A stretch of 64,000 bases of DNA from a bacterium (GCA_023269085.1 JAHFML010000002.1:65266-129265), one strand, 5' to 3'; shown: positions 2,439 to 16,971, counted from the first letter of the stretch. The notes: generated from the sequence alone by a model not told the origin. Numbers and translations are program-made.

Positions 2439-3023
2439 GATATCGGCGATAAGCTCGGGAAAGGTCTCTTGGTTGAAGTGTTGGCGATCTTCGAATACGC
2501 GAGCGGTCGCGTTCGGCAGGGCGGCTTGATATTTTTGTAGTTCAGAAAATGGCACGACAGGATCATCTTTGCTGTGGTAGAGGAATACATGTCCGCTTTG
2601 TTGTTCGAAGAGTGCGAGCGAAGAAGGGGCAGCGAATTCACTCGTCATGTCTTCCATATCAGTCGAGTACGCGCCGGCGACGATGAAGGTCGCTCTGATG
2701 CGTTTCGATACCTGTTCCTCCGAGAGATAGCGAACAAGGAAGCTGGCGCCGAGCGAATGACCGACGAGAATAAGATTGTCGTCGAGAAGCGGGAGAATCT
2801 TCTTGAAGAGGAGCGCCCATTCGGCATACTGCGCGTCTGAAGCATTCGGCATACGCGGAGCGAGCACATCGTATTCTGTGCCAAGCGTTTCTTGGAGTCG
2901 AGCCTTCCAGTCTGAGTGGAATCGATAACGATCAAGATCAATCTTTCGATTCTGTAAATCAGAGAGATATGCTTCGTGGGTCAGGAATGTGTTTCCGCCA
3001 TGAATGACTACGATTTGTTGCAT
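2421..3023 (-). CDS. Alpha/beta-hydrolase fold serine hydrolase (RBBP9/YdeN-like)
   Basis: GHSLG nucleophile elbow; 200 aa; MQQIVVIHGG N-terminus typical of this small esterase family. Confidence 0.65.
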   Translation of the reverse strand: MQQIVVIHGGNTFLTHEAYLSDLQNRKIDLDRYRFHSDWKARLQETLGTEYDVLAPRMPNASDAQYAEWALLFKKILPLLDDNLILVGHSLGASFLVRYLSEEQVSKRIRATFIVAGAYSTDMEDMTSEFAAPSSLALFEQQSGHVFLYHSKDDPVVPFSELQKYQAALPNATARVFEDRQHFNQETFPELIADIRSIEV

Positions 3024-3053
3024 GAGGTGAGTATAGCAGATTATTTCTTACAA

Positions 3054-3076
3054 GTATCGAAGTCAGACTTCGTTAC
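3054..3076. repeat. REP family D palindrome (copy 3, one mismatch)
   Basis: GTATCGAAGTCAGACTTCGTTAC between the hydrolase start and rpsA stop. Confidence 0.75.
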
Positions 3077-4197
3077 TTCTTCTTCCCCGCGAAGGTGAGC
3101 GTCATGCGCTGATCCTTCGGCTCGAAGAGCGTGATGGTGAAGGGATACGTCCGGCCGAGCTCAAGCGTCTCGCGGAGCTCGACAGGCGAGGCGAATTCGC
3201 TCACGTGCACGAGACCTGCGACGCCCTCTTCTATCGAGGCGAGCGCGCCGTGCTTGTTGTACTTGATCACGACGCCCGGCACCTCCTTGCCCTTGCTGTA
3301 GCGGGCGGCGGCAGTGTGCCACGGATTCTCCTTGAGTGCTTTGACCGAGAGCGAGACCTTGCCCTCCTTGATCTCGATAATCTTTACGCGCAACTTGTCG
3401 CCAACCTTGACGAGCGCATGCGGATCTTCGACGAGACCCCAGTCGAGCTCGCTGATGTGTACGAGGCCTTCGAGCCCGGGCTCGAGCTTCACGAAGACGC
3501 CGAAGTCGACGATACCCGTCACCTCACCGGTCGCTGCATCGCCGATCTGATACTTGTCGATGAGCGACGCCTTTTCGCCCGTGTCGTCGCCCATACGCTC
3601 GGAGAAGATGAGCTTACTCTCCTTTGCGTCGGCAGTGATGATGCGCACCGAGAGCGGATGGCCGATGAGTTGCATGAGCTCGCCCAAAATCTTGTCCTTA
3701 TCGCCCTCGGGCACGCGCGGGTAATGTTCGCTCGCGAGCTGGGAGGCAGGGAGGAAGCCCTGTATGCCTTGCCAAGAGAGGATGAGGCCGCCCTTGTTGG
3801 CCTCTTCGACCATGAGCGAATACGGCGTCTGCGCGACGATAGCCTGCTCGGCCTCGCCCCAGAGTGCCGCTTGGCGCGCCTCCTTGAGCGAGAGCTCGAT
3901 ATAGCCGTCGCGACCCGCGGGGTCGACGACTTTCGCGCTTATCGTGTCGCCCGGGTTCGCCTTGCGGAGCACATCGGCGGCGTTCAGATATTCGCGGCCA
4001 TAGATGAGCCCAGAGCCAAAGGGTGGCAGGTCGACATACACGCGCCCGCGGCTGATAGCGATGATAGTACCCTCGACGAGATCGCCCTCCTTGGGCGGCA
4101 TCGGGATGGCGTCGAGCAGGTCGGCCATAGGGTGACCTTCTGCCAAGTGGATAGTGACGACTGGAGCCGCAACCTTCTTTTCCTTCTCTTCTGACAT
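3073..4197 (-). CDS. rpsA: 30S ribosomal protein S1 (short, 4 S1 domains)
   Basis: Repeated S1 domain signatures (GxV..I...GxFV.L..g..GLxHISE); 374 aa. Confidence 0.85.
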   Translation of the reverse strand: MSEEKEKKVAAPVVTIHLAEGHPMADLLDAIPMPPKEGDLVEGTIIAISRGRVYVDLPPFGSGLIYGREYLNAADVLRKANPGDTISAKVVDPAGRDGYIELSLKEARQAALWGEAEQAIVAQTPYSLMVEEANKGGLILSWQGIQGFLPASQLASEHYPRVPEGDKDKILGELMQLIGHPLSVRIITADAKESKLIFSERMGDDTGEKASLIDKYQIGDAATGEVTGIVDFGVFVKLEPGLEGLVHISELDWGLVEDPHALVKVGDKLRVKIIEIKEGKVSLSVKALKENPWHTAAARYSKGKEVPGVVIKYNKHGALASIEEGVAGLVHVSEFASPVELRETLELGRTYPFTITLFEPKDQRMTLTFAGKKK

Positions 4198-5574: not shown

Positions 5575-8052
5575 ATGGCACGTGGGAAGGAAGATATGAA
5601 TAAAGACGCACCGACGCCAGTCGTGGTGAACATCATCGACCAGCCGATTGTTGCCGAGATGCGCACCTCGTATATCGACTATGCCATGTCGGTCATCACG
5701 AACCGCGCCCTGCCCGACGTGCGCGATGGATTGAAGCCGGTGCATCGCCGCATCCTCTACGCGATGAAGGAGCTCGGCCTCATGCCAGGAGCGAAGTTTA
5801 GGAAGAGCGCGCTCGTGGTCGGCGACGTGCTCGGTAAGTATCACCCGCACGGCGACATCGCCGTCTACGACTCGATGACGAAGATGGCGCAGGAGTTCTC
5901 GCATCGTTACCCGCTCGTTCTCGGTCAAGGCAACTTCGGATCTATCGACGGCGACTCACCGGCCGCGATGCGCTACACCGAGGCCAAACTCTCGCGCGTT
6001 GCCGAGGCCTTGCTCGCCGACCTCGACAAAGAGACTGTCGCCTGGAACCCGAACTATGACGCGACGCGCGACGAGCCCTCGGTGCTCCCCTCGGCGCTCC
6101 CGAACTTGCTCTTGAACGGGACACTCGGCATTGCGGTCGGCATGGCGACCAATATCCCGCCGCACAACCTGCGCGAGGTCGTCGCCGCGACGGTGCATCT
6201 CATCGAGAATCCAGACGCGACGACCGAGGATCTGCTCCAATTCGTCAAGGGCCCCGACTTCCCGCTCGGGGGTGTCGCCTTCAATCAGGCCGACATCCGC
6301 CATGCATATAGCTCGGGCAAGGGGCCGGTGGTCGTGCGCGGCGAGGCCGAGATAGTCGATGACGGCAAGAAGGACACGAAGATCATCATCACCTCGATCC
6401 CGTACCGCGTGAACAAGAGCGACATGATAGCGCGCATCGCCGATCTCGTACAGGAGAAGAAGATCGAGGGCATCCGCGACTTGCGCGACGAGTCGACAAG
6501 CGACATCCGCGTCGTCGTCGAGCTGAAGGGCACGGCGCATCCGCAGGCCGTTTTGAATGCGCTCTACAAGCACACCGAGCTTGAGAGCACCTTCCACTAC
6601 AACATGCTCGCGCTTGTCGAGGGCGTCCCCGAGATGCTCTCGCTCCAAGGGATGCTCACGCATTTCGTCGCGCATCGGCAGGAGGTGGTGAAGCGCCGCA
6701 CCGAGTTCGACTTGCGCCAAGCCGAGGCGCGCGAGCACATCCTCCTCGGCCTCTGCAAGGCGCTCGATCATATCGACGAAGTCATCGCGATAATCAAGAA
6801 GTCGGCTGATGTCCCGACGGCGAGCCAAGCGCTCCAGAAGAAATTCGGTTTTTCAATACTCCAAGCCGCCGCTATCCTCGAGATGCGTCTCTCCAAGCTC
6901 GCTGGCCTCGAACGCAAGAAGCTTGAGGACGAGCTCACCGAAGTGCAGGCTTTGATAAAGAAACTGAAAGAGATTCTCTCATCGGCGAAGAATATTCTCG
7001 CGGTGGTGAAGAGCGAGCTCGAGGAGTTGGCGCAGAAGTATGGCGACGATCGGCGCACGCGCATCGTGAAGGGCGGCGTGCAGAATATCTCGGTCGAGGA
7101 TCTCGTCCCCGACGAAGACTCGATGCTCCTTCTCACCCAAGGCGGCTATGTGAAGCGCACCAACCCTGACGAATACAAGAGCCAGAAGCGCGGTGGCGTG
7201 GGCGTCGTCGACATTGCGACCAAGGAGGAGGACGCGGTCACGCACTTCCTCGTTACGTCGGCGCACAGCGACCTACTCTTCTTCACCGACTTCGGCAAGG
7301 CGTATCAGATAAAAATGTATGAATTGCCCGAGGGGCGCCGTGCGACCAAGGGCAAGAGCATCATGAACTTCCTCTCGCTCGCGGGTGAAGAGAAGGTGAC
7401 CTCTATTCTGCCGGTTCCCAAAGGAGCCGCACTCGATGCGACGACGGTCGTCTTCGTGACCGAGCAGGGTGTGGTCAAGCGCGTCGCGGCCAAGGCCTTC
7501 GCGGATGTCCGCCGCTCGGGCATCATCGCAATAAATCTGAAGGACGGCGACAAGCTTGTGTCGGCCCATCGCGCGAATGAGGGCGACACGGTCTCGATAG
7601 TCACGGCGAAAGGGCAGTCGATCCGCTTCGACGTCGAGGAGACGCGCGAGATGGGTCGCACCGCGGGCGGGGTCAAGGGCATGAGCGTCAAGAAGGGCGA
7701 CCGCGTCGTCTCGGCCGAGGTTGTCCCTGCCGAGAAGGCGAAGGGCGCGTCACTCCTTGTCATTATGAGTAAGGGTTACGGCAAGCGCACGAAGATGAGC
7801 GAATATAAGGTACAAGGCCGCGGCGGCTCCGGTATCAAGACCGCCGATGTCACGCCGAAGACAGGCGAGATCATCGGCGCGAAGGTGGTCACGACAGACC
7901 TCGACGACGAAGAGATCGTCGTCATCTCGAAGAAGGGGCAGGTTATCCGCACGGGCGTCGCGACCATTTCGCTCCTCTCGCGCGCGACGCAGGGCGTCCG
8001 CATCATGCGCCTCTATGAGGGCGACAGTATCGCCTCCCTCGCCGCGCTGTAA
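5575..8052 (+). CDS. gyrA: DNA gyrase subunit A
   Basis: [20 protein letters not shown], active-site MRYTEAKL, C-terminal beta-pinwheel repeats; 825 aa. Confidence 0.95.
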
Positions 8053-11100: not shown

Positions 11101-11526
11101 ATGCGTACTTTCATCATCGCTTCGCTCGCCGTTCTACTTTTAGAAGTTGCTATCCCTATGGGAGTCTTCGCCGCGACTGCGGGTGTAAATGATCCGACTT
11201 CTAGTGGTGGAAGTGGAAGTGCGGGAACAAATGTTGCCCCAACCAGCAACTCCGCCGTCCAGCTCGTGAATCCGCTCAAGGGCGGCGCAACGCTCTCATC
11301 GTTCTTGAGCGATATCTTAAAGTTCGTCATCCAGATCGGCACCATCGCTATCATCCTCATGCTCGTCTTCGTCGGGTATACGTTCGTCGCCGCACAGGGC
11401 GCTCCCGCGAAGATCGAAGAGGCGAAGAAGATGCTTCTCTGGACCATCATTGGCGCGCTCGTCCTTCTCGGCGCACAGGCTATCTCCGCGGCTATACAAG
11501 CAACGGTGGGCGCACTTGGCGGCTGA
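11101..11526 (+). CDS. VirB2/TrbC-type pilin-like protein (T4SS pilin family, paralog 1)
   Basis: Signal peptide ...GVFA/A, then TM1 IGTIAIILMLVFVGYTFVAAQGAP, charged loop AKIEEAKKM, TM2 LLWTIIGALVLLGAQAI; architecture of VirB2/TrbC-like pilins. Confidence 0.6.
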   Translation: MRTFIIASLAVLLLEVAIPMGVFAATAGVNDPTSSGGSGSAGTNVAPTSNSAVQLVNPLKGGATLSSFLSDILKFVIQIGTIAIILMLVFVGYTFVAAQGAPAKIEEAKKMLLWTIIGALVLLGAQAISAAIQATVGALGG

Positions 11527-11527
11527 T

Positions 11528-11797
11528 ATGACTTTCGCCCAATTCGTCGGAGATGGTTCGACCGGTGTTATAGGCATCTTCAATACGGTCGTCATCCCGC
11601 TCCTCTTCTCGCTCGTATTCCTCGTCTTCGTATGGGGCGTCGTGTCCTACTTCTTCATCCATGGCGACGAAGAGACGAAGCGCGGCGAAGGGCGCAAGTT
11701 CATGCTCTGGGGCGTTATCGGCGTCGCGGTGCTCCTCTCGACATGGGGCTTCGTCAATCTTATCCTGGCTACTCTCGGTCTCGCGCCTGGCGCGTAA
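11528..11797 (+). CDS. VirB2/TrbC-type pilin-like protein (paralog 2)
   Basis: VIPLLFSLVFLVFVWGVVSYFFIHGDEETKRGEGRKFMLWGVIGVAVLLSTWGFVNL; TGAtATG coupling to upstream gene; start at ATG 11528. Confidence 0.6.
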   Translation: MTFAQFVGDGSTGVIGIFNTVVIPLLFSLVFLVFVWGVVSYFFIHGDEETKRGEGRKFMLWGVIGVAVLLSTWGFVNLILATLGLAPGA

Positions 11798-11815
11798 TGC
11801 TATACTGAAAGTTAT

Positions 11816-12247
11816 ATGACACCTACTCTTCTCGCTCAAGCAACCAATGTCCCCGGACCGTATGTCCAGTCGGTTAATAGTCAAGTGAATTACGGCATTA
11901 GTAACGGCGTTGGGAGCTATGGAAGCGGTATCGGTTATATTCCAAATATAGGCTCCTACGGGAGCGGCATCACCGGTATCGCAGGGACTATCCTCTATCT
12001 CATCAACTCAGTGCTCGTACCGCTCATCTTCGCGGTCTCATTTATCGTATTCCTCTATGGCGTGGCGAGCACCTACATCTTCTCTCACGGCGAGCCGGCA
12101 GAGGTAGAGAAGGGGCATAAGGTTATCCTCTGGGGTCTCATCGGCTTCGTCGCGATGGTCTCGCTCTGGGGCTTGGTCAATGTCGTGGCGAATACCTTCG
12201 GCTTGAACGGCATGATCTCCCCCGGGCGTTTGCCGACATCTTATTAG
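11816..12247 (+). CDS. VirB2/TrbC-type pilin-like protein (paralog 3, Gly/Ser/Tyr-rich N-terminal region)
   Basis: LVPLIFAVSFIVFLYGVASTYIFSHGEPAEVEKGHKVILWGLIGFVAMVSLWGLVNVV. Confidence 0.6.
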   Translation: MTPTLLAQATNVPGPYVQSVNSQVNYGISNGVGSYGSGIGYIPNIGSYGSGITGIAGTILYLINSVLVPLIFAVSFIVFLYGVASTYIFSHGEPAEVEKGHKVILWGLIGFVAMVSLWGLVNVVANTFGLNGMISPGRLPTSY

Positions 12248-12264
12248 CATAATCAATTCTCCCT

Positions 12265-12567
12265 ATGCCCGGCTCCGTCAATGTCTCACTCGTCCAAGGA
12301 TACTCGAACAGCATCCTCACGGTCATCAATCAGAGTCTCGTGCCGGTGCTCTTCGCCATCGCCTTCATCATGTTCCTCTGGGGCGTGTACAAATATTTCA
12401 TCATCGGCGCGACTGAAGATAAGAAGCGCGAAGAAGGGAGACATTTCGTCCTTTGGAGCATCATCGGCTTCGCGGTTATTCTCTCGGTATGGGGACTCGT
12501 CGCCGTCGTGACGAGCACATTCAACTTGCCTGCCGGCGCTACGCCTCCTAGTTACCCGAAGCTCTAA
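12265..12567 (+). CDS. VirB2/TrbC-type pilin-like protein (paralog 4)
   Basis: LVPVLFAIAFIMFLWGVYKYFIIGATEDKKREEGRHFVLWSIIGFAVILSVWGLVAVV. Confidence 0.6.
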   Translation: MPGSVNVSLVQGYSNSILTVINQSLVPVLFAIAFIMFLWGVYKYFIIGATEDKKREEGRHFVLWSIIGFAVILSVWGLVAVVTSTFNLPAGATPPSYPKL

Positions 12568-12655
12568 CTATCCACCTATCCACACCCCTTCGCGAAGTGC
12601 GTTGACCCGGTGCTATGAAAAGGTACAATAACCTCATTACTCGTTCATCTATCTT

Positions 12656-13036
12656 ATGAAAAAAGCTCTTGCCATCACATCCGTCTCGCTTGCCACTCTC
12701 GCTCTACCGATTGTCTCTTCTGCCGCCACAACGATCACCGACCTGAACGGTGTCGGTAACTTCATCATCAATACTATCAATGGTCTTATCGTTCCTGTCC
12801 TCTTCGCGATTGCCTTCATCGTCTTCGTCTATGGCGCCTTCGAGACCTTCATCATCGGCGCGAACAAGGAGGAGGTGAAGGATAAAGGGAAAAACCTCAT
12901 GCTCTGGGGCCTCATCGGCTTCTTCGTCATGGTCTCGGTCTGGGGCCTCGTGAACATCCTCACGAGCACGGTCAGCTTCGGCAACAACGGCGGTATCAGC
13001 AATCCGCCCAAGGCCGGCGTGAATATCGGCAACTAA
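12656..13036 (+). CDS. VirB2/TrbC-type pilin-like protein (paralog 5, with cleavable signal peptide)
   Basis: Signal peptide MKKALAITSVSLATLALPIVSSAA; IVPVLFAIAFIVFVYGAFETFIIGANKEEVKDKGKNLMLWGLIGFFVMVSVWGLVNIL. Confidence 0.6.
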   Translation: MKKALAITSVSLATLALPIVSSAATTITDLNGVGNFIINTINGLIVPVLFAIAFIVFVYGAFETFIIGANKEEVKDKGKNLMLWGLIGFFVMVSVWGLVNILTSTVSFGNNGGISNPPKAGVNIGN

Positions 13037-13043
13037 CACAAGG

Positions 13044-13316
13044 ATGGCCGCTCTTAGCAAGTTCCTCGGCCTAGTCGTCGTGCAGATAATCAATCCGATT
13101 ATCCTCTTGCTCGCGGGCGCGGCGTTCGTCCTCTTCGTCTGGGGCGGCTTCCAATTCGTCCTCCATGCGGGCGACGACACGAAGCGGGCAGAGGGACGGC
13201 AAGCTATCCTCTGGGGCCTCGTCGGGCTCGTGATTATCTTCGGCGCCTATAGCATCATCAATCTCGCTCTGGGCGCGTTCAACATAGCGCCAATTCATAA
13301 GATATCGGGTTCATAA
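13044..13316 (+). CDS. VirB2/TrbC-type pilin-like protein (paralog 6, shortest)
   Basis: ILLLAGAAFVLFVWGGFQFVLHAGDDTKRAEGRQAILWGLVGLVIIFGAYSIINL. Confidence 0.55.
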   Translation: MAALSKFLGLVVVQIINPIILLLAGAAFVLFVWGGFQFVLHAGDDTKRAEGRQAILWGLVGLVIIFGAYSIINLALGAFNIAPIHKISGS

Positions 13317-15436: not shown

Positions 15437-15448
15437 CAAAAGTTTTAG

Positions 15449-15536
15449 TGCCGAGGGCGGGAATCGAACCCGCACGAGCCTATTAGAGCTCACGACATTT
15501 TAAGTGTCGAGTGTCTACCAATTTCACCACCTCGGC
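15449..15536 (-). tRNA. tRNA-Leu (anticodon TAA), class II
   Basis: Acceptor GCCGAGG/CCTCGGC, anticodon stem-loop CGACA-CUUAAAA-UGUCG, long variable arm, T-arm GGGTTCGATTCCCGC. Confidence 0.85.
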
Positions 15537-16026
15537 GCACACCCTTATTTCTACCACGATGTGTAGGCTTCAGGCTATGGCAATTTGGGCAGAGAATGCG
15601 AAGATTCTCGAGTCGGTTATCTGAATGATCCCCATTGATATGATCGATCTCTATGGGAACACGTCCATCCTCACTCTGTTCTGCCCAGCCACACTCCTCA
15701 CATTTTGGTTTTTTCAGACCAGCCTTGAATAGCCGCTTCTTTAGTTGATGAATTGAGAAGTGACTATTTGAAATGAGGATTTCTTCAAGCGTGAGAGAAG
15801 GTTTCTTCAGAACGTTCTTGCCCTTACTCCAGCCTTTCCCCAAGAAATGATTAGTGTCGATGCCGTATTCTTCGGCGTATTTTTCGAAGTAACGATAATT
15901 TCCTCCTGCACCGCGCAAATTCATTTTTCCCAGAGCCTCTCGCACACTTTGAGATGAAGCAATTGTCTTTCGCAAGGAGGCTTCTTCCCAGTGGTTCTTG
16001 ATGGCTCTCATGCACACAGTATACAC
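15490..16026 (-). CDS. HNH endonuclease (homing-endonuclease-like); 3' end overlaps tRNA-Leu(TAA)
   Basis: HNH motif EIDHINGDHSDNRLENLRILCPNCH; C-terminal ~15 codons run into the tRNA gene on the same strand, so the true C-terminus is uncertain. Confidence 0.55.
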   Translation of the reverse strand: MYTVCMRAIKNHWEEASLRKTIASSQSVREALGKMNLRGAGGNYRYFEKYAEEYGIDTNHFLGKGWSKGKNVLKKPSLTLEEILISNSHFSIHQLKKRLFKAGLKKPKCEECGWAEQSEDGRVPIEIDHINGDHSDNRLENLRILCPNCHSLKPTHRGRNKGVRRGGEIGRHSTLKMS

Positions 16027-16058
16027 CCTGTGCGTCTACCATTCCGCCATCTCGGCAA

Positions 16059-16418
16059 TCAGTCTGGAAGCGCGACACCTGTCGCGCGGGCGAGTGTCGC
16101 TATCTGTCGGTCGTGCCGGACTAAGTGCGCGCTACCCGCGCCGTTCTCCGTCCACAAGTCATGCATCCCGCCGACAATGCCGTCGAGCTTATTTTCCATC
16201 CGGCCGATGACCATCGCCATCGCGCCTATTTCTTCATGCACTTCGCCTAGCTCGACCTTTACATCGGCAATCGCTTCTTTGAGATCAACTTTTGTAGCGT
16301 ACTTCTTAAATTCCCTTTTTATGTAATCTTTTGTAGGGTACTTCTTCAATTCGTTCCTCAAGTCATCCTTCGTCGCAAAGGTGTCTTTGAGCTTTTCGAT
16401 ATCCGCATTGGTAATCAT
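16059..16418 (-). CDS. Hypothetical small protein with tandem KKYPTKDYIKREFKKYATKVDLKE-type repeats
   Basis: ORF plus ~39-bp DNA tandem repeat at ~16288-16353; no recognizable domain. Confidence 0.3.
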   Translation of the reverse strand: MITNADIEKLKDTFATKDDLRNELKKYPTKDYIKREFKKYATKVDLKEAIADVKVELGEVHEEIGAMAMVIGRMENKLDGIVGGMHDLWTENGAGSAHLVRHDRQIATLARATGVALPD

Positions 16419-16445
16419 GGTGATGGTATATTACCATGGAGCGAT

Positions 16446-16517
16446 GGCCAGGTGGTGAAGTGGTAACACAGCGGTCTGCAAAACCGCGATGCGCGGGTTC
16501 GATTCCCGCCCTGGCCT
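16446..16517 (+). tRNA. tRNA-Cys (anticodon GCA)
   Basis: Acceptor GGCCAGG/CCTGGCC, anticodon stem-loop GCGGT-CUGCAAA-ACCGC, T-arm GCGGGTTCGATTCCCGC, discriminator T. Confidence 0.85.
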
Positions 16518-16519
16518 CA
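16500..16519. repeat. Direct repeat copy 1 (3' end of tRNA-Cys, CGATTCCCGCCCTGGCCTCA)
   Basis: Identical 20-mer recurs at 16640-16659. Confidence 0.85.
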
Positions 16520-16639
16520 AGAGCAATGCGCTAGCATTACTCGGCGGGAATCGAATGCCGGAGCGATGTTCAGTCAGCAGACTGAACCGCGAGGCGGGGT
16601 CGCGACCGAGCCGAGTGACGACGAGGCGAGAGTTGTGAC

Positions 16640-16659
16640 CGATTCCCGCCCTGGCCTCA
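16640..16659. repeat. Direct repeat copy 2 (displaced duplicate of tRNA-Cys 3' end; att-like)
   Basis: CGATTCCCGCCCTGGCCTCA 120 bp downstream of the intact tRNA; an inverted partial copy CGGCGGGAATCGAA lies in between (16545-16558). Confidence 0.8.
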
Positions 16660-16971
16660 CTATTCAGGCGCGCCGGTGTGCTCGCGGTTGTCGAGAAGGA
16701 AGTTGATGCGCGGAAGCGGGTGAAGCCGCGCGTGCGCCTTCAGGTGGTCAGAGAACGCTTCGCGCTGACGGTTGAGGAATGAGAGCGCCGAGTGCGCCAT
16801 CTCTTCGGGGAAGATGCTGACGAAGACGCGCACCTGTGCGCCGTGCTCTGCCGCCTCGGCGCGGACGACGGTAATGAGCGAGCCTGGGCCTGCCTCGCGC
16901 GCGATGAATTGCGCCGCCTCTTGAGCGATGACGCCGAGCACGCGGCCGGTACGTTCGCGCTTCGTTATCAT
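16660..16971 (-). CDS. rbfA: Ribosome-binding factor A
   Basis: 103 aa, RbfA-like KH fold sequence (RV..I..E....I...); immediately downstream of infB with 4-nt overlap, the conserved infB-rbfA arrangement. Confidence 0.75.
   Translation of the reverse strand: MITKRERTGRVLGVIAQEAAQFIAREAGPGSLITVVRAEAAEHGAQVRVFVSIFPEEMAHSALSFLNRQREAFSDHLKAHARLHPLPRINFLLDNREHTGAPE

Follow-up and report, generated by a model that had tools for sequence, protein, structure and literature searches.

The DNA analysed here, called the window below, is a 64,000-nucleotide stretch of a bacterial genome (GCA_023269085.1 JAHFML010000002.1:65266-129265). The host was judged from 80 IF-2-anchored loci of relatives to be a Paceibacteria/Kaiserbacteria-like member of Patescibacteria (CPR). 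As listed in Table 1, an intact tRNA-Cys gene lies between a region with tRNA-Leu(UAA) and an HNH endonuclease gene on one side and the rbfA gene on the other. Its Rfam score compares with a gathering score of 29, and ARAGORN reads its anticodon as GCA. The T-loop (T54-T60) occupies 16498-16504, and the discriminator U73 is residue 16517. A 20-mer, CGATTCCCGCCCTGGCCTCA, whose first copy ends two bases beyond the discriminator, occurs exactly twice on the plus strand of the window (D1 and D2), with exactly 120 nt (16520-16639) between the copies. None of 100 dinucleotide shuffles contained a match, the chance expectation being 0. The initial annotation had reported this exact repeat of the tRNA 3′ end and an inverted partial copy between the repeats, and both are present. 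The inverted copy, GGCGGGAATCGAA, is the reverse complement of T54-C66 of tRNA-Cys (100% complementary to 16498-16510) and is also complementary to 16640-16650 across 11 nt. A further copy of the 20-mer elsewhere, which the initial annotation had also considered, was not found in the 64-kb window even when three mismatches were allowed.

Table 1. Features at and around the tRNA-Cys locus of the window.
Feature	Position	Strand	Remarks or basis
tRNA-Leu(UAA), intact	15448-15536	minus	
HNH endonuclease gene	15490-16011	minus	Immediately 5′ of tRNA-Leu(UAA), overlapping its 5′ part
Older tRNA-Leu(UAA) remnant, first 31 nt	16026-16056	minus	30/31 identical to L002
tRNA-Cys(GCA), intact	16446-16517 (end 16517/18)	plus	ARAGORN; Rfam RF00005, 68.6 bits, E 3.5e-14
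Repeat copy 1 (D1), tRNA-Cys C56 to position 75	16500-16519	plus	Exact 20-mer
Variable linker	16520-16542	plus	Small hairpin AATGC-GCTA-GCATT at 16525-16538
Anti-T-arm (A′), 5′ strand of the closing helix P1	16543-16555	plus	Inverted repeats; consensus fold; MFE
Conserved three-way-junction core	16556-16639	plus	Covariance model; MFE; covariation
Repeat copy 2 (D2)	16640-16659	plus	Exact 20-mer; fold; empty-site comparison with L241
rbfA, context outside the element	16660-16971	minus	Pfam RBFA; with infB on the minus strand

The ORFs between the repeats are 46-49 aa long. No promoter or terminator pattern was found in the linker, and a search for an intrinsic terminator of tRNA-Cys (a GC-rich hairpin followed by a T run) gave 0 terminator-like sites in 16300-16800. 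D2 adjoins the rbfA stop codon (16660-16662, minus strand). The RbfA of the window has 103 aa, compared with 104-113 aa for almost all of its nearest relatives; its C-terminus reads ...TGAPE*, where the L241 protein goes on as ...TGAPEPKPTEN* (L numbers label the loci compared), and the shortening relative to other relatives amounts to 6-10 residues. As the rbfA stop adjoins D2, the rearrangements at the tRNA have clipped the 3′ end of the gene. Farther away, at about 11158-13316, six tandem small genes with T4SS_pilin domains were seen in the gene calls of L001, a contig identical to the window over 12.3 kb.

Do the neighbouring genes belong to the same mobile region, as the initial annotation thought possible for the HNH gene and the hypothetical gene? 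The HNH gene is fixed immediately 5′ of tRNA-Leu(UAA), with the same overlap of its 5′ part, in nine relatives (L005, L007, L015, L024, L046, L057, L080, L239, and L240), with or without an insert at tRNA-Cys. Thus, it is part of a separate cassette at a different tRNA, and was rejected as a part or a nuclease of the element described below; its region looks like a homing cassette carrying its own tRNA copy. The 119-aa ORF, which does not belong to the element either, lacks an informative domain; homologues occur in L011, L013, L017, and L080. It holds a 39-nt tandem repeat (16278-16355, 77% identical), translated into a duplicated KEFKKYATK-like segment. Among the five neighbours searched (HNH, the 119-aa ORF, RbfA, IF-2, and Band_7), no integrase or recombinase was found, so the integrase sought in the initial annotation, or its remnant, is absent from the genes searched near the repeats.

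The locus was compared with 80 IF-2-anchored loci of relatives taken from one-per-species genomes. In most relatives, the order of genes is infB-rbfA-tRNA-Cys-tRNA-Leu(UAA)-tRNA-Lys-tRNA-Leu(UAG). Apart from the identical protein cluster P0001 (2 contigs), no relative has an RbfA more than 76% identical to that of the window. L241 and L242 (RbfA 72% identical) share the arrangement of the window without the insert, as the initial annotation had anticipated for related genomes: an inverted tRNA-Cys gene, differing from that of the window by one T-loop base, adjoins the rbfA stop. The linker of the window is likewise missing at the empty site of L241. Thus, D2 stands where the original 3′ end of the tRNA gene was. 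Seven of the 11 closest IF-2 relatives, including L002-L004, L007, L008, and L010, have no insert at tRNA-Cys. Homologous inserts were found directly after tRNA-Cys in L005, L006, L011, and L239/L240 and after tRNA-Leu(UAA) in L009, and every insert closes with a repeat of the 3′ end of the tRNA it follows. L011 has a Cys insert of another subfamily than the window copy. In the Cys-Leu-Lys-Leu cluster, single tRNA genes flip orientation in place between related genomes (L002-L030, L241), apparently at the gene borders; the two halves of an acceptor stem are 7-nt inverted repeats of each other. An inversion of a tRNA-plus-element unit in the window was considered and found unneeded, the tRNA of L241/L242 being already inverted beside rbfA without an element.

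By comparison of these inserts, 16520-16639 is one copy of a family of small non-coding insertion elements with a predicted RNA-like structure, which I named the Y element. Y elements are about 100-170 nt in size with a folded core of 60-90 nt, and consist, from 5′ to 3′, of a variable linker, an anti-T-arm, a three-way-junction core, and a tRNA repeat from C56 to the 3′ end. The core common to the inserts reads GCCGGAG-P2-CGAGGCGGGGUCG-P3-GUGAC. The window copy matches the family model (R1, below), lies 22 nt past tRNA-Cys, and has the anti-T-arm and a C56 repeat directly after GTGAC; its linker is unlike those of other copies. Only one of the seven tRNAs in the window carries a Y element. 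The initial annotation took the 120 bp for what was left of an element lost or reduced, but they form a complete member of this family. Its reading as an integration scar holds in three respects: the duplication, which starts in the T-loop, has the geometry expected when the 3′ part of a tRNA gene is the insertion site, the gene is left intact, and close relatives lack the insert. It fails in the decay it assumed. It had also reasoned that this reading would fall if the second copy were part of a conserved structured RNA present in all relatives. D2 does lie inside a structured, RNA-like element, but since that element is restricted to some relatives, the objection holds only by half.

In the window copy, the closing helix P1 pairs 16543-16552 with 16641-16650 of D2. 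P2 (16557-16595) has a GCC/GGC base, a GGA/GA internal loop, and a hairpin (16568-16587) with an AGCA loop. After the junction J2/3 (GG, 16596-16597), P3 (16598-16640) pairs GGUCG with UGACC, including a conserved G.U pair, and has the apical sequence GAGUGACGACGA; the core ends in GUGAC, and C16640 of D2 closes P3. The rest of D2 (16651-16659) repeats the acceptor 3′ strand, the discriminator, and CA, and is unpaired within the element. Across subfamilies, one of the P2 and P3 apical loops is a GACG-type motif (GAGYGACGRCGA or a GCGAAGC mini-hairpin) and the other an AGCA/AGUA tetraloop. These motifs are exchanged between subfamilies (for example, in the window at 16613-16624 and in L006, L018, L022, L032, and L043), a swap that hints at a loop-loop or protein contact. 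Kissing of the CUGC loop of the linker hairpin with AGCAG loops was rejected as inconsistent across copies.

Is this fold real? The covariance model R1 was built from eight minimal copies of relatives, with the window copy left out. Their consensus fold, a three-way junction, has 27 pairs, of which 21 have changed in a compensatory way. The model recognises the window copy with 45.6 bits (E 1.5e-11), and with the filters off the window copy (E 5.3e-10) is the only significant match in the 64 kb. The model finds 40 further copies in the 80 IF-2-anchored loci. When public metagenomes were scanned with the core pattern, at least 120 loci matched, and 131 copies were found by the model in the first 100 of them. 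Altogether, 172 Y copies lie in about 1.4 Mb of related DNA, among the matches listed. In the alignment of the 131 metagenome copies, which was fitted to the model, 94.0% of the cells are paired versus 68.6% after shuffling, compensatory double changes occur at all 27 pairs, and the covariation score is 0.562 versus 0.157 for shuffled alignments (0 of 500 reach it) and 0.065-0.094 for slid partners. Since the metagenome pattern fixes 25 core bases and leaves the helices free, the conservation of the core sequence is overstated in this set, while the covariation of the helices is not.

The direction of folding was assessed from G.U pairs. The P3 G.U pair is kept in 122 of the 131 copies, and the counts of G.U versus A.C are 241 versus 44. 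Thus, the tRNA-sense strand is the folded strand. The RNA minimum free energy (MFE) structure of the window copy equals the family consensus fold (-63.5 kcal/mol, z -6.0). A less stable fold is obtained for the opposite strand (-50.8 kcal/mol, z -3.6), and P3 is lost when DNA folding parameters are used. A riboswitch on the opposite strand with a terminator-like hairpin was therefore rejected, as the G.U pairs favour the tRNA-sense strand and the elements are oriented like their tRNA, irrespective of the genes downstream. A search of 16519-16659 against Rfam 15 gave no match at E up to 1, and no family, including group I/II introns, tmRNA, YrlA, SRP, and 6S RNA, matches the element at gathering score in the loci of 12 relatives. 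The motifs of the hammerhead, HDV-like, and twister ribozymes, the purine-like three-way junction, and the K-turn did not fit by eye, and Rfam gave nothing for them. No description of the family was found in Rfam or by full-text literature search. The Y family is apparently a large, undescribed family in the ultra-small Patescibacteria/CPR.

Y copies are associated with tRNA genes. Of all copies, 122 (71% of 172) lie within 300 nt downstream of a tRNA gene on the same strand, against 3.9% expected from the tRNA density in the same DNA (P ~1e-130). The tRNAs concerned belong to 19 amino-acid families, including Tyr, Trp, Arg, Val, Ser, and Pro. In 59 copies, at least 8 nt straight after GUGAC exactly match the upstream tRNA, and in 46 of these clean-repeat copies C56 is the first repeated base, the boundary being GTT|CGA or GTT|CAA. 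The junction is ambiguous by one base, as the last C of GUGACC is C56; formally, Y is inserted between T55 and C56 (or C56 and R57), with an intact tRNA gene remaining upstream. Clean repeats are 18-22 nt long and mostly stop where the tRNA does, with CCA included if the gene encodes it; some reach into the host-specific trailer (38 nt in L136, 30 nt in L141, and 29 nt in L090). The same picture was obtained from the tRNA side: of the 481 tRNAs in the loci, 86 are followed at a distance by a second copy of their own 3′ end, 81 of these copies lie at 100-299 nt, and 66 are preceded by GTGAC or GTGGC. A mature tRNA as primer or source of the repeat, after the logic of the retroviral PBS, was rejected, as the repeats carry gene trailer and no added CCA.

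The anti-T-arm immediately precedes the core. Its sequence is the complement of the T-loop and the 3′ T-stem strand of the local tRNA, and in L098 it tracks even an unusual TGCAATT loop; with the repeat, it forms P1. P1 is specific to each copy: at least 9 uninterrupted pairs are formed in 22 of 126 copies, versus 2.4% when arm and repeat partners are swapped between copies. The complement of the acceptor 3′ strand is also present in L005/L006, L053, L057, and L099. The arms of L127 were at first sight those of a foreign tRNA; they are in fact diverged copies of the local tRNA-Gly, and no evidence for donor-derived arms was obtained. In the predicted MFE structure of a co-transcript of tRNA-Cys and the element (16446-16662), the tRNA gives up its own T-arm and acceptor pairing: its 5′ acceptor strand is bound by the distal repeat and its proximal T-arm by A′.

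Y elements are patchy and stack on each other. In other organisms, the cores nearest to that of the window follow tRNA-Asn, Val, Pro, Ile, Leu, and Arg. L132 has two copies with identical P3, one after tRNA-Leu(CAG) and one after tRNA-Leu(GAG), and each repeat matches its own acceptor strand. Tandem or nested arrays are common and were found in L127 (five copies after tRNA-Gly), L171, L239, L054, L044, and L022. Cores of other families (X and X′) are inserted at this T-loop position as well and are arranged serially with Y in L044, L022, L032, and L191. At least two or three such small families were seen, one of them reading CGAAAACC...GAGCGAAGCGAAA...GGTGTACTG; the sites are L044 7256-7375, L022 ~6925-7095 (minus strand), L032 ~11335-11460 (minus strand), L191 1556-1760, and L176 ~2390-2440. 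Each of these cores ends in its own copy of a tRNA 3′ end and is often in tandem with Y or nested in it. Among viral contigs, none has an exact match to the full pattern, and one, L206, has a good match to a looser one. L206 carries tandem Y copies at 2900-3319; the contig is classed as viral and may come from a phage or be CPR DNA that was misclassified. Among the genome fragments, no two near-identical copies were seen at separate sites of one genome. Since only genome fragments were compared, recent movement is inferred rather than observed.

What are Y elements? I consider it reasonably probable that they are non-autonomous insertion elements of patescibacterial tRNA genes, aimed at the T-loop and duplicating the 3′ end of the tRNA. 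Such an element would be mobilised in trans, and the selected unit would be the folded Y RNA, probably read through from the tRNA. Insertion would duplicate the target from C56 to the tRNA end (19-38 bp), which would let Y use any tRNA without destroying the gene. A possible route is RNA-templated and target-primed, with the anti-T-arm and the repeat helping to find T-loops. As to the marks of a target-primed element, the 3′ junction is precise and the linker is variable, but the duplication mostly runs to the tRNA end, with some longer cases. No transposase, reverse transcriptase, or integrase tied to the Y family was found, and no reverse transcriptase was seen near Y copies where the ORFs were inspected (L127, L184, and L191). 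The match of the anti-T-arm to each local tRNA (10-17 nt) is beyond simple target duplication, and it is likewise beyond a model in which the repeat is an att copy; correction of an imperfect palindrome during replication is one possibility for the origin of the matching arm. A function as a cellular RNA would account for the very high conservation of the core sequence just as well as a selfish element would.

More tentatively, Y may be a mobile element of a new class, a protein-less RNA module of about 100 nt that homes to the T-loop of any tRNA gene. The antisense anti-T-arm and the tRNA-derived 3′ tail would then guide an RNA-templated or otherwise guided insertion, and duplication of the tRNA 3′ end would keep an essential single-copy gene alive. 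Such a module would be SINE-like or guide-directed, with X and X′ using the same site.

It is less probable, though worth weighing, that Y is a miniature integrative element of the att type, in which the repeat is borne by the element and a recombinase acting in trans crosses over in the T-loop; the folded core and P1 would serve as attP, perhaps in a folded, single-stranded form like that of CTX phage or of integron attC. The repeat does start in the T-loop, reportedly a classical crossover position of tRNA-targeting integrases. It usually ends exactly at the tRNA 3′ end, and tandem units each with their own repeat resemble serial integration at one att site. However, one subfamily is found at many tRNAs, each repeat matching the acceptor strand of its own tRNA, where an element-borne copy that changed its target would yield hybrid, dead tRNAs; some repeats also contain host trailer. 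For these reasons, I favour target duplication over an element-borne att copy. The preference is held loosely, because a repeat end that usually equals the tRNA end fits the att model better. Compensatory helices and the conserved G.U pair also favour an RNA over binding sites for a protein on duplex DNA.

Large serine recombinases of about 600 aa are encoded in Patescibacteria (L184 7369-9162; L243-L246 from 10001 to ~11800), always convergent with tRNA-Val or tRNA-Gly and with the stop codon inside the tRNA 3′ end; the family is a marker of islands a few kb long. The island of L184, which is 5.4 kb in size and carries this recombinase, lies between tRNA-Val and a Y core plus repeat, which suits an att-type element. 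However, four other islands of the same recombinase family at tRNA 3′ ends have no internal Y core, the sole model match in their loci being truncated and lying beyond the island, at the distant end of L243, and no recombinase of the L184 family is encoded in the window. Thus, L184 looks like a secondary insertion, and the large serine recombinase was rejected as the mobiliser, only L184 being suggestive.

Could Y instead be a resident RNA module acting in cis on tRNA transcripts, without mobility? It would be either a mimic of the top half of tRNA or a folding or processing switch, in which the anti-T-arm pairs with the T-arm of the tRNA itself or with the repeat. I regard this as rather unlikely. 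The strong covariation and the conserved junction bases would suit it, as would the constant orientation, the closeness of the tRNAs, and the lack of a terminator between tRNA-Cys and the element in the window. The predicted co-transcript takes the alternative pairing described above, so a competing fold is thermodynamically plausible and a cis-acting role stays alive; the copies with an added complement of the acceptor 3′ strand would form a mimic of acceptor plus T-stem. However, a resident module is hard to reconcile with occupancy of one window tRNA in seven and a patchy presence in close relatives, with nested and tandem copies, with repeats that exceed the needs of P1 by reaching the acceptor strand and trailer, and with the terminator-like hairpin that lies between tRNA and core in many copies. 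A function in cis is also compatible with mobility and does not exclude it.

It is very improbable that the locus is what decay has left of a larger integrated element, perhaps one that included the HNH and 119-aa genes. The direct repeat of the tRNA 3′ end and the mobile-looking genes nearby invite this reading, but the interior scores highly as a full-length copy of a conserved family whose members have this size at more than 170 sites, the HNH gene is located beyond tRNA-Cys and not between the repeats, and keeps to tRNA-Leu(UAA) whether or not the Cys element is present, and the neighbouring genes searched hold no remnant of an integrase. A decayed tandem duplicate of tRNA-Cys (a pseudo-tRNA) or a chance repeat is hardly credible, since short collinear matches of the tRNA to the downstream segment (GGAGCGATG and AACCGCGA) are outweighed by a chance expectation of 0 for the 20-mer, by an interior homologous to elements beside Leu, Arg, Val, Ser, and other tRNAs and not to tRNA-Cys, by GGAGCGATG being part of the subfamily core consensus, and by the absence of a tRNA model match across 16520-16659.

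If Y elements are tRNA-targeting insertion elements, the tRNA genes of Patescibacteria, whose genomes are very small and whose tRNAs are mostly single-copy, host a widespread, unannotated class of tiny structured elements. The T-loop, the most conserved sequence in biology, would then be a landing pad without gene death. The system would offer a concrete case of target choice by base pairing in non-coding elements and of the origin of partial tRNA duplications, and may help explain the rearranged tRNA clusters in Patescibacteria genomes. The core of 60-90 nt is a well-supported candidate for a new structured RNA, in which self-cleavage, a protein partner, or tRNA mimicry could be sought. In annotation, Y repeats risk being mistaken for att sites of lost prophages or for pseudo-tRNAs.

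How does Y compare with known systems? The phage and island sites in tRNA genes (attL/attR of tyrosine integrases) share with it the interruption at the T-loop, a direct repeat of about 20 bp of the tRNA 3′ part, an upstream copy that keeps the gene functional, and serial insertions that stack at one tRNA. In contrast, the Y element of the window is 120 bp long with no genes and no integrase, its conserved folded core covaries, the T-arm recurs inside it in inverted form, tRNAs of 19 amino-acid families are used by a single family, and some repeats contain host trailer. Of the marks of an att scar, the repeat starting in the loop was found, whereas a recombinase or its remnant by the repeats and an unconstrained interior were not. 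MITEs and REPINs are, like Y, short, non-coding, multi-copy, hairpin-rich, patchy, and both tandem and nested. However, the arms of Y copy the local tRNA rather than being element-specific terminal inverted repeats, its duplication is long (19-38 bp) and anchored to one tRNA position, with repeats of 18-38 nt tied to the tRNA end, and its core, with its compensatory changes and the G.U pair that is kept, resembles a structured RNA; the shared terminal inverted repeats and fixed short duplication of a MITE are absent.

Group II introns, R2, and SINEs resemble Y in their structured RNA, in an internal complement to the upstream flank (cf. EBS/IBS), in a precise 3′ junction with a variable 5′ side, and in the co-transcription with a host RNA gene that is presumed for Y. 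Class C group II introns home to terminators, and the ribozyme helix of R2 is built partly from host rRNA sequence. Unlike group II introns, Y has no domain V/VI, reverse-transcriptase ORF, or Rfam intron match, and its exon-like flank is duplicated, whereas introns do not duplicate their flanks. No reverse transcriptase was linked to the Y family in the loci inspected, and bacterial SINE-like elements are not known. In CTX attP and integron attC, as in Y, two inverted segments anneal into a duplex mimicking the chromosomal target, and the order of target 3′ part, rest, inverted arm, core, and target 3′ part is obtainable by a one-strand exchange. In contrast, the stem of Y mimics a different tRNA at each site, its core sequence is conserved, DNA parameters miss its P3, and no link to Xer or IntI was found. 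Finally, in some Y copies an acceptor stem can stack on a helix like the T-stem, to which a foreign domain is attached, as in tRNA-like non-coding RNAs (tmRNA and YrlA/Y RNA), but Y is multi-copy, its stems copy the neighbouring tRNA, it has no Rfam match, and its foreign domain replaces the T-loop rather than the anticodon arm. Each known family compared thus fails in at least one defining feature when held against Y, and there is a substantial chance that Y is a tRNA-targeting insertion element of a new class.
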